Shown: positions 38,927-44,612, numbered from the stretch's first letter. The stretch is 64,000 nt of DNA from an uncultured bacterium (GCA_964455905.1 CAYVYN010000001.1:210960-274959), one strand, 5' to 3'. Numbers and translations: made by a program. Notes: generated from the letters alone by a model not told the origin.

Positions 38927-39376
38927 ATGGAAGCTGACAAATTCGAGGCTGAAAAAAGCCTAAAAAAATCGATGCAACAAGAAATCTCTATTATGAGAGA
39001 GCTTCTATCTAATTTACTAGCGGAAACTTCTTGCTTAGTATTAAATGAAGAGGCCTCACGCTCTCTTCTTATGCAAAATAGATCCATGCTATTACAAGAA
39101 CTAACCAAACAACGACAAGAAAGAGATCTAGCTACTAAAATAATAGGAGAAAATTCTTCTATGGATTCTTTTTTAAGCCACGATTCTAATATTTGCGAAA
39201 TTCCCTTACTAATAGATCAAATCATCGCTTTGAATGAAAAAATCAACGAACAAAATGCTTACAATCAAAACCTACTGCAGCAAAGACAACATCTTGTTGC
39301 AATTTCACCGCAACTCGCCTATCCTAATTTAAAACAATCTCCAACCAGAAGAAAAAACAATTTAATGACAATTTGA
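38927..39376 (+). CDS. Hypothetical coiled-coil protein
   Basis: 149 aa, GGGAGG RBS, heptad-like sequence. The stop overlaps the start of the following TagF-like gene (TGATG). Confidence 0.4.
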   Translation: MEADKFEAEKSLKKSMQQEISIMRELLSNLLAETSCLVLNEEASRSLLMQNRSMLLQELTKQRQERDLATKIIGENSSMDSFLSHDSNICEIPLLIDQIIALNEKINEQNAYNQNLLQQRQHLVAISPQLAYPNLKQSPTRRKNNLMTI

Positions 39377-40464
39377 TGGAACTAAAAAAAAAAGCTGCAG
39401 CAGGCTTAATCTATGGATCAGCACCTCCTTATATAGATCACCTAGCACCTCTTTGTGATTTTTTGAAGATCCCACTTATTGTTACGGAAGACGACTCGAA
39501 AGCCTTGTTAGAAAGGTTGTATCCATCGTTACAAACTATCTATGTCGACTACATACGATTGCCAGAAACGGTTCTGGTTCATTTTGATACAATTTTTGTT
39601 TGCACTCCAAGAGCTCTTTTTGAAGAGATCTTCTTTTTTGCGCAACATTTCCATCGAAAAAAAATACAGACCATCTGGTGTCCTCATGGAAACTCCGATA
39701 AAGGCCATGCTTCAGCTCATCTAGAGGCTCTCCTTGAAGAAAAATTCGCATTGTTATACGGCGATAAAATGATCGATTTTCTAAGACAAAAAAACGTACT
39801 ATCTTGTTTAGAAAAATACGTAAAAACAGGTAACTTTCGAAAAGAATACTACCTAGAAAAAAAAGCATTCTACAATGCTCTTATAGAAAAAGAAATCTTC
39901 GAACACCTAGATAGAAACAAAAAAACAATATTATATGCTCCCACCTGGGAAGATGCAGAAAGCTCCTCCTCTTTTGCGGAAGGAATTCCGTTTTTAATAA
40001 AACACCTTCCGAAAGATTTTAATCTCATCATCAAACCGCATCCAAACTTGCTTCTTAATGGCACAAAAAACAAAGAGCTAATCGAAAAATATAAAAACAC
40101 CCCAGGCGTGTTATTTTTAACCAATTTCCCGCCTATATACCCTCTCTTAGCTATCACCGATTACTACATAGGAGACTTCTCTTCGATCGGCTACGACTTT
40201 CTTTTTTTCGATAAACCCATGTTCTTTCTAAACTCCAAAAAAAGAGATCCGTTACTTGATCAAGGGCTCTACCTGTTTCGCACAGGAATAGAAGTTCATC
40301 CAGAAAACTACCAAAATTTCTACAAAATCCTAGAAGACAACAAAGATAACCATCCTTCAGCTCTTTGTAAAGAAGTCTACAACTACACATTTGGGCAAGA
40401 CACTAAACTCAGCTGCTTAAAACAAGAAATAGAAACAACCTTTCACCTACAAACTACAAATTAA
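39376..40464 (+). CDS. TagB/TagF-family (CDP-glycerol/ribitol-type) phosphotransferase-like protein, paralog 1
   Basis: ILYAPTWED, IIKPHPNL and DYYIGDFSSIGYDFLFFDKPMFF match the Glyphos_transf hallmarks (YAPTFR, KxHP, DYSS..FDF). CPHGNSDKGH is shared with paralog 2. Confidence 0.65.
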   Translation: MELKKKAAAGLIYGSAPPYIDHLAPLCDFLKIPLIVTEDDSKALLERLYPSLQTIYVDYIRLPETVLVHFDTIFVCTPRALFEEIFFFAQHFHRKKIQTIWCPHGNSDKGHASAHLEALLEEKFALLYGDKMIDFLRQKNVLSCLEKYVKTGNFRKEYYLEKKAFYNALIEKEIFEHLDRNKKTILYAPTWEDAESSSSFAEGIPFLIKHLPKDFNLIIKPHPNLLLNGTKNKELIEKYKNTPGVLFLTNFPPIYPLLAITDYYIGDFSSIGYDFLFFDKPMFFLNSKKRDPLLDQGLYLFRTGIEVHPENYQNFYKILEDNKDNHPSALCKEVYNYTFGQDTKLSCLKQEIETTFHLQTTN

Positions 40465-41818
40465 TTTGATAACAGGGCACATACTCGCTCTGGTGAAGAT
40501 TCATCCGTTTTTGGCTCGCAAAAGACTTTAAAAGATCATCCATCAACTGCATAAGAGACGCACTTCCACTTATTTTAAAATATCCCTTTTCCTCAATAGA
40601 CTGCATACATTCTTCTTCAATATTTCCTGATATAATTCCAGAAAAAGCTCTTCGTAAATTAGCTATAAGAGTATGTGGATCTTGCTCCAAGTACAAACTT
40701 AAGCTAGCCATATTTCCATGCGTAGGCTTAAAAGGTTTTTGAAACTCAGGGTCTATTTTCAGTAACCAATTAAAATTTGGCGAATCATTACCTTCCCTAC
40801 GAAACTCCTGTAATTTCTTAATCCCCTCATTCACTTCTTTTGCTACTTGAGCAGGATCATCTATAATGATTTTATAACGACGTTGAATCTTTTCACCTAA
40901 TATTTCTCCTAAAAAAGAATCAATCTTTTGAAAATATTCTCTAGAACTAGCAGGCCCTGTAAATATCAAAGGGAACGGAACTTTCTCATTATCGGGATGA
41001 AGTAAAACACCAAGCAAATATAAAATTTCTTCCATGGTACCCACTCCCCCAGGGAAAATTACAACGGCATGCCCTATCCTAACAAAAGCCTCAAGACGTT
41101 TTTCTATATCCGGCATAACAACCAAAGTGTTTACAATAGGATTTGGAGATTCAACAGCAATAATCCTTGGCTCAGTAATTCCTAGATACCTGCCTCTTTG
41201 AAGTCTTTGTTTATTATGTCCAACCGCGGCACCCTCCATAGGACCTTTCATAGCACCATTACCGCACCCAGTACAAACATCGAGTCTCCTAAGCCCCAAC
41301 TCCTCTCCTACAGAAAAAGTATAATCATATTCCTCTCTAGAAATGGAGTGTCCTCCCCAACAAACAACAAGAGGTTGATCAGAAGAAAGAAAATTAGCAT
41401 GGTGTAGTATATGAAAAATAGAATTGGTAATCCCCTCTGTTGTGGTCAAATTAAAATGAGGATCATCTTGCATATTAATGCTCGCATAAAGGACATCCCG
41501 CAGTACAGAAAACAAATGCTCTTTGATTCCTTCGATAATCTGACTGTCTACAAAAGCAGTAGCAGGAGCTCCCTTGACCGCAAATTTAATTTTATAATTC
41601 TCTTGTATTACCTTTATTTCAAAAGATTTATATCTATCTAGTAATTCTCTATTATTATCTAAATCAGATCCACAGTTCAACACAGCAAGAGCACAATTTC
41701 GAAAAAGTCTATAGGAAGCACTTTCATGGGCTTCGAGTATTTTTAAAATTTCACTTTGAGATAAGCCATCCAGCTGATGCGATGAGGATGTTACAGCATC
41801 AACAACATCATATTTCAT
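40454..41818 (-). CDS. ppnN: Pyrimidine/purine nucleotide 5'-monophosphate nucleosidase PpnN (YgdH, LOG family)
   Basis: 454 aa, matching my recollection of E. coli PpnN in length and along the whole sequence: LFRNCALAVLN, VVCWGGHSI, CTGCGNGAMKGPMEGAAVGH, MPDIEKRLEAFVRIGHAVVIFPGGVGTMEE, IIIDDPAQVA, LRRAFSGII. Confidence 0.85.
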   Translation of the reverse strand: MKYDVVDAVTSSSHQLDGLSQSEILKILEAHESASYRLFRNCALAVLNCGSDLDNNRELLDRYKSFEIKVIQENYKIKFAVKGAPATAFVDSQIIEGIKEHLFSVLRDVLYASINMQDDPHFNLTTTEGITNSIFHILHHANFLSSDQPLVVCWGGHSISREEYDYTFSVGEELGLRRLDVCTGCGNGAMKGPMEGAAVGHNKQRLQRGRYLGITEPRIIAVESPNPIVNTLVVMPDIEKRLEAFVRIGHAVVIFPGGVGTMEEILYLLGVLLHPDNEKVPFPLIFTGPASSREYFQKIDSFLGEILGEKIQRRYKIIIDDPAQVAKEVNEGIKKLQEFRREGNDSPNFNWLLKIDPEFQKPFKPTHGNMASLSLYLEQDPHTLIANLRRAFSGIISGNIEEECMQSIEEKGYFKISGSASLMQLMDDLLKSFASQKRMNLHQSEYVPCYQINL

Positions 41819-43553: not shown

Positions 43554-43568
43554 TTTCACGCCGTAACC

Positions 43569-44612
43569 ATGACTAAAAGACAAGTTGCTATTACTACTGG
43601 ACCTGAAACCTATCTAGATCATCTAGGGGTAATCTGTTATATTCTAGATATTCCTCTTATCGTATCTGAAGATGAAACCTATAAATCTGCTCTTACATTT
43701 TATCCTCAAATTAAAACGATACATAAAGATCTCAATCAACTCTCGGCCCAATTTTTAGCGGAAAATTTTGACGTGATTTTTGAAAGTGGAAAATTTTGGG
43801 CCGCAGAACTAACTCCTATTTTTGAAGTCCTTTATAAAAAAAAGATGCAGTTCATTTTTTGTCCCCACGGTAATTCCGATAAAGGGCACTCGGCTAAGCA
43901 GCACATAGACCAAGACTTAGCGCTTGTCTACGGGAAACACATGGTAGACTTACTAACGAAAACAGGTGCCATCCAAAAAATAAAAAAAGTTATTAGGACA
44001 GGTAACTATCGTCTGCCTTTTTACCGTAAATACCAATGCTTTTACGATAGGCTAGTAAAAGATCGTATTTTGAAAAATCTTGATAAAACTAAAAAAACCG
44101 CTCTTTATGCTCCTACCTGGCAAGACGGAGAAAACCCGACTTCTTTTTTTCAAGAAACAACCAATCTAATAACAAGTTGCAAAGGAAATATTAACCTAAT
44201 CATTAAACTACACCCCTTCCTAGAAAAGTTTCATCCAGCAGAAACTTTCTATATCCTAAGTAAGCATGAAAACACCGAGGGAGTTATTTTTTTAACAGAA
44301 TTTCCTGCTATTTATCCTATACTTAATGTCGTAGACTTCTATATTGGGGACTACTCTTCCATCGGATATGACTTTTTAAGCTTCAATAGGCCTCTTTACT
44401 TTTTAACAAAAAAAGATCCCAAACAAAGCCTTTTGCATCCCTGCGGCCTAACGATTCCTTCTTCAAAAGAGGCTTTTGCTTTTATTGAGGAAACACTAAA
44501 AAGCAACCAAGAAGAAAAAAAATATATAAGGGAGTCTACGTATAATTACGCATTCGGAAAAGAAAAAACTTTTAAAGAACTCCAGCAAGAACTGCTAGAC
44601 GCTATAGAATAA
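43569..44612 (+). CDS. TagB/TagF-family phosphotransferase-like protein, paralog 2
   Basis: ALYAPTWQDG, IIKLHPFL, DFYIGDYSSIGYDFLSFNRPLYFL and CPHGNSDKGH. Clearly paralogous to 39376-40464 along its whole length. Confidence 0.65.
   Translation: MTKRQVAITTGPETYLDHLGVICYILDIPLIVSEDETYKSALTFYPQIKTIHKDLNQLSAQFLAENFDVIFESGKFWAAELTPIFEVLYKKKMQFIFCPHGNSDKGHSAKQHIDQDLALVYGKHMVDLLTKTGAIQKIKKVIRTGNYRLPFYRKYQCFYDRLVKDRILKNLDKTKKTALYAPTWQDGENPTSFFQETTNLITSCKGNINLIIKLHPFLEKFHPAETFYILSKHENTEGVIFLTEFPAIYPILNVVDFYIGDYSSIGYDFLSFNRPLYFLTKKDPKQSLLHPCGLTIPSSKEAFAFIEETLKSNQEEKKYIRESTYNYAFGKEKTFKELQQELLDAIE

Follow-up and report, generated by a model that had tools for sequence, protein, structure and literature searches.

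A conserved operon of two TagF-like paralogs and a FlgN-like gene in environmental Chlamydiota

We analysed a 64,000-nucleotide stretch of DNA from an uncultured bacterium (GCA_964455905.1 CAYVYN010000001.1:210960-274959), hereafter the window, which carries two genes related to the TagF family of phosphotransferases, termed tagF-like A and tagF-like B (Table 1). Its core feature is a three-gene operon consisting of a flgN-like gene, tagF-like A and tagF-like B, which is conserved across environmental Chlamydiota and is split in this genome by an insertion. A and B represent a phylum-restricted subfamily of a known kind of enzyme, distinguished by a divergent acceptor domain, a PHG motif, the tandem arrangement of the paralogs and the FlgN-like partner. 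On balance, we favour the view that A and B are two monofunctional phosphotransferases of the size of TagB, TarF and CpsA, each of which would attach a single alditol-phosphate or sugar-phosphate unit to a precursor of the envelope, served by the FlgN-like protein as an adaptor.

A three-gene operon shared by environmental Chlamydiota

A scan of one genome per species identified 295 loci encoding a TagF-like relative, and the best 80 of these 295 were examined together with flanks of 8 kb on either side, which with the window gives a set of 81 loci. The relatives are thus spread over 295 species-representative genomes and are not a peculiarity of this genome. All of the best 80 loci belong to metagenome-assembled genomes (MAGs) of chlamydiae, namely of Rhabdochlamydiaceae, Simkaniaceae and Parachlamydiales. 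The complete MAG chromosomes OY970369.1, OY970179.1, OY970364.1, OY969554.1 and OZ156466.1 are among the carriers of the module. In almost all 80, the gene order is mutY (-), flgN-like (+), A (+), B (+) and mreC (-). In at least 60 of the 81 loci a flgN-like ortholog precedes A, at a median distance of about 17 nt; the copy in Simkaniaceae is divergent (L061). The B orthogroup is represented directly 3′ of A in 66 of the 81 loci, mostly with a gap of -56 to +35 nt between the two genes. In the window, the flgN-like gene and A overlap in a TGATG sequence, in which the stop codon TGA (39374-39376) shares its last base with the ATG of A (39376-39378), and a GGGAGG ribosome-binding site precedes this overlap. 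The translational coupling of the two genes that was described in an earlier note on this DNA is therefore borne out.

No chlamydial product is known for A and B, and the literature that we searched yielded neither a publication on chlamydial TagF-like genes nor an assigned function for them. The earlier note had considered that the genes might turn out to be universally conserved in chlamydiae with a different function already assigned; the broad conservation was found, in the 295 genomes mentioned above, and the assigned function was not, in the same literature. A mention of COG1887 in Pallen 2005 is only a table row for SepQ, a protein of the YscQ/FliN type, and is unrelated to the TagF-like genes. 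The gene CT109 of C. trachomatis, which lies near mutY, encodes a 262-aa Chlamydiaceae-specific protein and hence is not TagF-like.

The chlamydial synteny of mutY, the module and mreC also occurs in several MAGs whose deposited names are Verrucomicrobia, Acidobacteria or ‘Chlamydia trachomatis’ and which look like mislabelled environmental chlamydiae (L004, L009, L010, L014-L017, L024, L025, L037, L062 and L068). Several of these loci also carry tm134 or GspD. Moreover, a GT4 glycosyltransferase gene lies directly 3′ of mutY, divergent from the operon, in 53 of the 81 loci (for example at L006:5311-6429 on the minus strand) and is absent from the window. The capsule polymerases Cps3D/Cps7D pair a TagF-like with a GT4 domain, so the two genes could conceivably be linked in function.

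Family, motifs and fold of the TagF-like paralogs

A and B share 39% identity over 338 aa (E 7e-77) and are the clear paralogs that the earlier note took them to be. Across the loci they form separate orthogroups, with the nearest neighbour found in the own group in 132 of 132 cases and with identities of 44-48% within and 36% between the orthogroups. This separation indicates that the duplication is ancient, and the predicted catalytic motifs have been retained by both copies.

Both proteins score above the Pfam gathering score of 22.1 bits for Glyphos_transf (PF04464), and thus fall inside the family for which this check had been proposed. The match is confined to the C-terminal domain and covers about positions 159-293 of the 367 positions of the profile. 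A search of the PDB with the single A sequence returned TagF (3e-5), Cps3D (4e-5) and TarL (3e-4), and a search with the family profile returned TarL (1.3e-8), Bcs3 (1.7e-8), Cps3D (1.2e-7) and TagF (8.5e-6). The significant PDB sequence matches were exclusively TagF-type alditol-phosphate transferases. On these sequence comparisons, we accept A and B as members of the TagF/TagB (PF04464) GT-B superfamily.

All of the motifs of cytidine diphosphate (CDP)-glycerol/ribitol phosphotransferases that had been quoted for the two genes are present in both of them. These are xxDHL, CPHGNSDKGH, YAPTW.D, K.HP and D.YIGD.SSIGYDFL, and in each of the two paralog groups their conservation over 66 loci is 95% or higher. 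At the same level of conservation, 37 columns are shared by both groups, including P-H-G-N-S-D-K, G-N-x-R, Y-A-P, H-P and D-x-S-S-x-G-Y-D. The YAPTW and D-x-S-S-x-G-Y-D donor-site motifs align to TagF, TarL and Cps3D and are invariant in both paralogs; in the C-terminal donor-binding domain, HMMER pairs YAPTWRD and DYSSVMFD of TagF with YAPTWED and GDFSSIGYD of A. The second catalytic histidine, which in the RxH motif of TagF binds the pyrophosphate of the donor, is likewise covered by this alignment, which places ‘LRMHY’ of TagF (H584) opposite ‘IKPHP’ of A (H223), and the His-Pro pair is at least 95% conserved in both groups.

The putative key residues of A are H105 in the PHG motif, R156, YAPTW at 188-192, K221-x-H223-P and D268/S270/S271/D275, and those of B are H100, R148, YAPTW, K-x-H215-P and D261/S263/S264/D268. 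In Cps3D-CgoT and TagF, the key residues are H479 G480, R542, A573, R607/H609 and S647 S648 D652 (PMC11666461), and H105, R156, A189, K221/H223 and S270/S271/D275 of A match them in order and spacing (PMC11666461; PMC5974469). The first and second histidines are separated by 118 or 115 residues in A and B, compared with 130-140 in TagF, CgoT and Cps7D. In the N-terminal domain, the invariant P-H-G-N-S-D-K-G loop follows a beta-strand (E99-102), and a G-N-x-R motif is invariant as well. Variation at the first histidine motif has precedent, as WHG changes to QHG in hexose-phosphate transferases (PMC11666461). Judged from these residues, a two-histidine mechanism is likely for A and B.

An AlphaFold2 model of A (mean predicted local distance difference test score 88.8, predicted template modelling score (pTM) 0.89) consists of two Rossmann domains, with alternating beta and alpha elements in two halves. 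Foldseek matched this model to GT-B enzymes including TagF, Bcs3 and TarL at template modelling (TM) scores of 0.57-0.65. The predicted structure thereby confirms a GT-B fold for A, without finer discrimination among GT-B enzymes.

The invariant H-P dipeptide of A and B could also be read differently. The two proteins might be glycosyltransferases that use cytidine monophosphate (CMP)-activated 3-deoxy-D-manno-oct-2-ulosonic acid (Kdo) or CMP-nonulosonic acid, like the TagB-superfamily transferases of Tannerella for pseudaminic and legionaminic acid (Pse/Leg), and might extend or branch the Kdo region of lipooligosaccharide (LOS). Chlamydiae certainly produce one such cytidine donor, CMP-Kdo, and weak matches of A and B to the NCBIfam model BFO_1060 reach a level about equal to those to TarF/TarL. 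The Tannerella BFO_1060-type enzymes resemble A and B in their GT-B/TagB-type domain and their HP motif, which is that of sialyltransferases, use a cytidine-nucleotide donor, as A and B may, and are required for nonulosonic-acid transfer (PMC5420450). However, this family comprises glycosyl rather than phosphoryl transferases, and A and B, at 26.6 and 27.8 bits, fall far short of the cut-off of 200 of its model (NF046086). The conserved positions of the N-terminal domain showed no D/E-D/E-G motif, TarL and Bcs3 have the HP dipeptide as well, and the PDB matches described above point to alditol-phosphate transferases throughout. We therefore regard a role in the transfer of CMP-ulosonic acids as improbable.

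The insert between A and B and the surrounding window

In the window, A and B are separated by two genes, ppnN and a gene for a double FkbM methyltransferase. The earlier note had correctly described the latter as two FkbM domains behind a hydrophobic N-terminus and had overlooked ppnN. PpnN scores 667 bits on the equivalog model NF038390 (cut-off 450), and its gene runs convergently to A, with 11 nt shared at the 3′ ends of the two. The FkbM protein matches PF05050 with 112.2 bits (cut-off 22.7) and TIGR01444 with 91.1 bits (cut-off 37.7), in each case in two stretches, and its hydrophobic N-terminus resembles a signal peptide. The presence of ppnN and fkbM between A and B is restricted to the window, as both are absent from this position in all 80 other loci. 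In the closest relative (L002, 70% identity), the same junction carries a different insert, which consists of an AbiEi-like antitoxin-type gene and short fragments of open reading frames (ORFs; L002:9138-10435). In this clade, the A-B junction is thus a hot spot for insertions, and PpnN and the FkbM protein lie outside the conserved system as a local insertion. The proposal that the FkbM protein acts in one system with the two paralogs does not hold accordingly.

A distance of 15 nt separates the end of fkbM from B, which follows on the same strand, and co-transcription of the two is probable in this genome. Together with the pairings of TagB and FkbM proteins known from flagellin glycan loci and the existence of polymerases among TagF-family enzymes, this proximity would fit a scheme in which A, B and the double FkbM protein jointly make a methylated, phosphodiester-linked surface polymer of teichoic-acid or capsule type. 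This scheme is at odds with the absence of fkbM from the module in the 80 other loci and with the status of the junction as an insertion hot spot. Furthermore, a full-length FkbM homolog (P0126) sits in an unrelated glycan locus with genes for Glyco_transf_92, a methyltransferase and a uridine diphosphate (UDP)-glucose dehydrogenase, and signal-peptide-like N-termini are found on the double FkbM protein and its relatives and not on A and B. The polymerases TagF, TarL, Cps3D-CgoT and Bcs3-CrpP provide the best PDB sequence matches of A and B, appear to share both catalytic histidines with them and have a similar fold (TM about 0.6), but their identity to A and B is 14-18% and they are far larger (562-1170 aa), with membrane-binding helical, tetratricopeptide repeat or extra glycosyltransferase domains, and make long polymers. 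A and B lack such extra domains. With about 350-370 aa, they have the size of a monofunctional primase or ‘transition transferase’ such as TagB, TarF or CpsA rather than that of a polymerase. No exporter, Wzx/Wzy, LytR-CpsA-Psr (LCP) ligase or donor-synthesis gene is linked to them in the loci examined. Hence, the glycopolymer put forward in the earlier note found no support in the size of the proteins or in their neighbourhood, and we consider a joint methylated polymer very unlikely.

Only four other full-length relatives of the double FkbM protein were found, P0126 among them. Its second FkbM domain (aa 253-514) shares 57% identity with a single-domain homolog (P0155), and belongs to a large family of proteins of about 310 aa with signal-peptide-like N-termini in Chlamydiota and Dependentiae/Babeliales (P0126-P0244), both of which are amoeba-associated groups. 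Some of these relatives are fused to a GT10 fucosyltransferase (P0143, P0160). An export signal on an S-adenosylmethionine (SAM)-dependent methyltransferase is odd, and the protein might be a membrane-anchored or secreted enzyme.

The window as a whole is an ordinary piece of chlamydial chromosome, with genes for a TLC ATP/ADP translocase, a Pkn-type kinase, Tol-Pal, MurI, the type II secretion proteins GspDEF, a sigma-70 factor and RecBCD-like helicases. A 333-aa ORF without annotation overlaps a GT2 glycosyltransferase gene (6642-8403, +) just 5′ of the Tol-Pal cluster, which comprises TolQ (8557-9315), TolB (10536-11903), Pal (11918-12619), a LysM protein (12670-13266) and MurI (13263-14084). 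Other genes of the window encode a 946-aa protein with a eukaryote-type protein kinase domain (3564-6404, -), a 1171-aa protein in which an SBP_bac_5 domain follows about 700 residues without a Pfam match (16622-20137, +), and an 887-aa MORN-repeat protein (26901-29564, -). Weak matches to IucA/IucC and FhuF mark a 451-aa protein (50451-51806, -) as siderophore-synthetase-like, and its gene adjoins that of a PAP2 phosphatase (49553-50416). In a promoter and terminator scan, signals were at or below the expectation from shuffled sequences.

Table 1. The conserved operon, the insert and the flanking genes in the window
Feature	Position	Strand	Product and matches	Context
flgN-like gene	38927..39376	+	149 aa, helical	First gene of the conserved operon; stop overlaps the start of A
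tagF-like A	39376..40464 (start 39373/39376)	+	362 aa from ATG; predicted GT-B phosphotransferase type; PF04464 59.3 bits	
tagF-like B	43569..44612	+	347 aa; same catalytic motifs as A; PF04464 60.8 bits; TarL model E 2.5e-7	Paralog of A
ppnN	40454..41818	-	454 aa; nucleotide 5'-monophosphate nucleosidase; NF038390 equivalog, PF11892, PF14793, PF03641	Lineage-specific insert
double FkbM methyltransferase	42009..43553	+	514 aa; PF05050, TIGR01444	Same lineage-specific insert as ppnN
mutY	37744..38805	-	TIGR01084 290 bits	Left flank, divergent, outside the module; synteny in nearly all loci
mreC	45221..46363	-	PF04085 85.8 bits, PRK14872 237 bits	Right flank, convergent, outside the module; synteny

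Predicted roles of the TagF-like pair and its FlgN-like partner

The closest functional models for A and B are the primases TagB and TarF and the enzyme CpsA (Cps7A), which likewise consist of a single GT-B module of the PF04464 family and have the C-terminal donor motifs YAPT, (R/K)xH and DxSSxxxD in common with them. These enzymes extend a membrane-bound glycolipid at the cytoplasmic face by one or a few units of glycerol-3-phosphate, and Cps7A, itself a TagF-like enzyme, does so specifically on a Kdo glycolipid, which serves as a precedent here (PMC11666461). In contrast to them, the chlamydial proteins have an N-terminal domain that cannot be aligned and a PHG instead of a WHG motif, and Cps7A carries a tyrosine at the position of that histidine. 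Also unlike the TagB, TarF and Cps7A systems, the chlamydial operon combines tandem paralogs with a FlgN-like gene, has no linked TagD, TagO/TagA, TagGH or Kps, and occurs in diderm, obligate intracellular hosts.

In the mechanism that we propose, the donor would be bound by the C-terminal Rossmann domain. It would most likely be a CDP-alditol (CDP-glycerol or CDP-ribitol) or, alternatively, a UDP-hexose from which a sugar-1-phosphate would be transferred, and it may be held by the K-x-H-P histidine, the presumed equivalent of H584 of TagF, together with YAPTW and D-x-SS-x-x-x-D. The PHG histidine of the divergent N-terminal domain, presumably corresponding to H444 in the WHG motif of TagF, would deprotonate a hydroxyl group of the acceptor, resulting in a phosphodiester. 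A and B might act at two successive or at different positions. Since no N-terminal hydrophobic segment was seen in A or B and no exporter or ligase is linked to them in the 81 loci, the acceptor is most likely a cytoplasmic-face precursor with an export pathway of its own, such as Kdo-lipid A (LOS) or lipid II/peptidoglycan.

The genes of the window were surveyed by Pfam searches on 38 of the 44 ORFs of at least 150 aa, by gene calls for the E and F components of type II secretion and by a motif scan, leaving out three short ORFs at 29582-31851. In agreement with the earlier note, neither this survey nor tblastn with TagD and IspD detected a gene for a cytidylyltransferase, an ABC exporter or Wzx/Wzy in the window; tblastn with these two queries gave zero matches in the window and 82 loci. 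Furthermore, neither the window nor the flanks of the 80 loci contain a linked TagD/TarIJ, TagO/TagA or KpsSC, TagGH/KpsMT or ligase gene. The variable DNA beside the module in the other loci was considered as a source of donor-synthesis or export functions and was rejected, as it encodes unrelated housekeeping proteins (a P-type ATPase, a cytochrome c assembly protein, an importer-type ABC system, Dus and Fic). CDP donors are also made by cytidylyltransferases that are unrelated to TagD, such as CpgD in Caulobacter, so little can be concluded from the lack of TagD in the neighbourhood.

The first gene of the operon had been labelled as encoding a coiled-coil protein of unknown function. Its helical nature stands, and the label is to be corrected to a weak FlgN-family match, which is seen at E<0.01 in 14 of 18 orthologs with a best E-value of 1.9e-8. 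The family is small, with 109 representatives of about 100-240 aa in 1.84 billion proteins, and a single-sequence model of the window protein shows two long helices at a pTM of 0.37, which is too unreliable for a fold search. Encoded directly ahead of A, the FlgN-like protein might serve the A/B pair as an adaptor, scaffold or chaperone.

The same partner gene could alternatively indicate a protein-modification module, in which the FlgN-like protein would be a type III or flagellar-type export chaperone that presents a secreted substrate, and A and B would add glycerol-phosphate-type groups to this protein or its glycan, as a relic or re-use of a flagellin-glycosylation island. In favour of this possibility, no other FlgN-family-like protein occurs here than that of the first gene of the operon, this gene has translational coupling to A, and Chlamydiae possess a type III secretion system. 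Moreover, the flagellin-glycosylation region VR1 of the Enterobacterales flag-2 system encodes a TagB-type transferase (COG1887) and FkbM methyltransferases together with flagellar-type genes (PMC6993521). That region also encodes TagD, flagellin and other glycosylation proteins, whereas the chlamydial locus has no flagellin or donor-synthesis gene and its FkbM gene is not conserved. No flagellar gene, FlgK/FlgL-type (hook-associated) substrate gene or type III secretion gene adjoins the module in the window or in any of the other loci, and the secretion genes nearby are of type II only. In addition, the module lacks a linked primary protein glycosyltransferase, the resemblance to FlgN is marginal, and one locus (L058) carries A and B without the flgN-like gene. 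We therefore regard a protein-modification module as unlikely.

Several points weigh against our own view of A and B as monofunctional phosphotransferases with a FlgN-like adaptor as well. On the side of the enzymes, the N-terminal domains alone have no Pfam match, and only the C-terminal nucleotide-binding domain can be aligned to TagF-type proteins; the equivalence of PHG and WHG that we infer consequently rests on motif form, position and spacing and not on an alignment. The YAPTWR motif has not conserved its arginine, in place of which E, Q, K or N occurs. In the Foldseek search, UDP-N-acetylglucosamine (UDP-GlcNAc) 2-epimerases ranked first or equal to TagF, so that the fold supports a GT-B enzyme and nothing narrower. 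No CDP-alcohol synthase was found in the window or the 81 loci, and B is missing from some loci. On the side of the partner, the FlgN-like protein of the window reaches 27.8 bits on the Pfam model FlgN (PF05130), below its gathering score of 30.5. In the PDB, the family profile matches FlgN PA3352 of Pseudomonas (2fup) best, at an E-value of 0.13, and an hhalign comparison with a Salmonella FlgN sequence was not significant. The lack of the flgN-like gene in at least one locus (L058), which retains A and B, counts here, too.

The chlamydial envelope is unusual and medically relevant, as its LOS is truncated and its peptidoglycan forms a sacculus or just a ring at the septum, and its chemistry beyond Chlamydiaceae is barely known. 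The conservation of a TagF-like pair in Rhabdochlamydiaceae, Simkaniaceae and Parachlamydiales predicts a specific phosphate-containing substituent. Tentatively, we suggest that environmental chlamydiae may decorate lipid II/peptidoglycan or the Kdo region of LOS with a phosphodiester-linked polyol-phosphate or sugar-phosphate by means of a two-enzyme TagF-like module and a FlgN-derived adaptor. The peptidoglycan of Protochlamydia is reported to carry unidentified chemical modifications (PMC5814848), for which A and B are candidate genes. In the databases, the genes are labelled as ‘CDP-glycerol glycerophosphotransferase family protein’ or ‘teichoic acid glycerol-phosphate primase’; the latter label is unverified, and the neighbouring FkbM gene should not be read into the pathway. 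If the suggestion is true, the operon would bring teichoic-acid-type chemistry, in a minimal form without an exporter, to an intracellular phylum of diderm bacteria, although the pathogenic Chlamydiaceae may lack it, and would carry the idea of TagF-like ‘transition transferases’ acting on Kdo or lipid-linked precursors into a new phylum and to a new partner protein.

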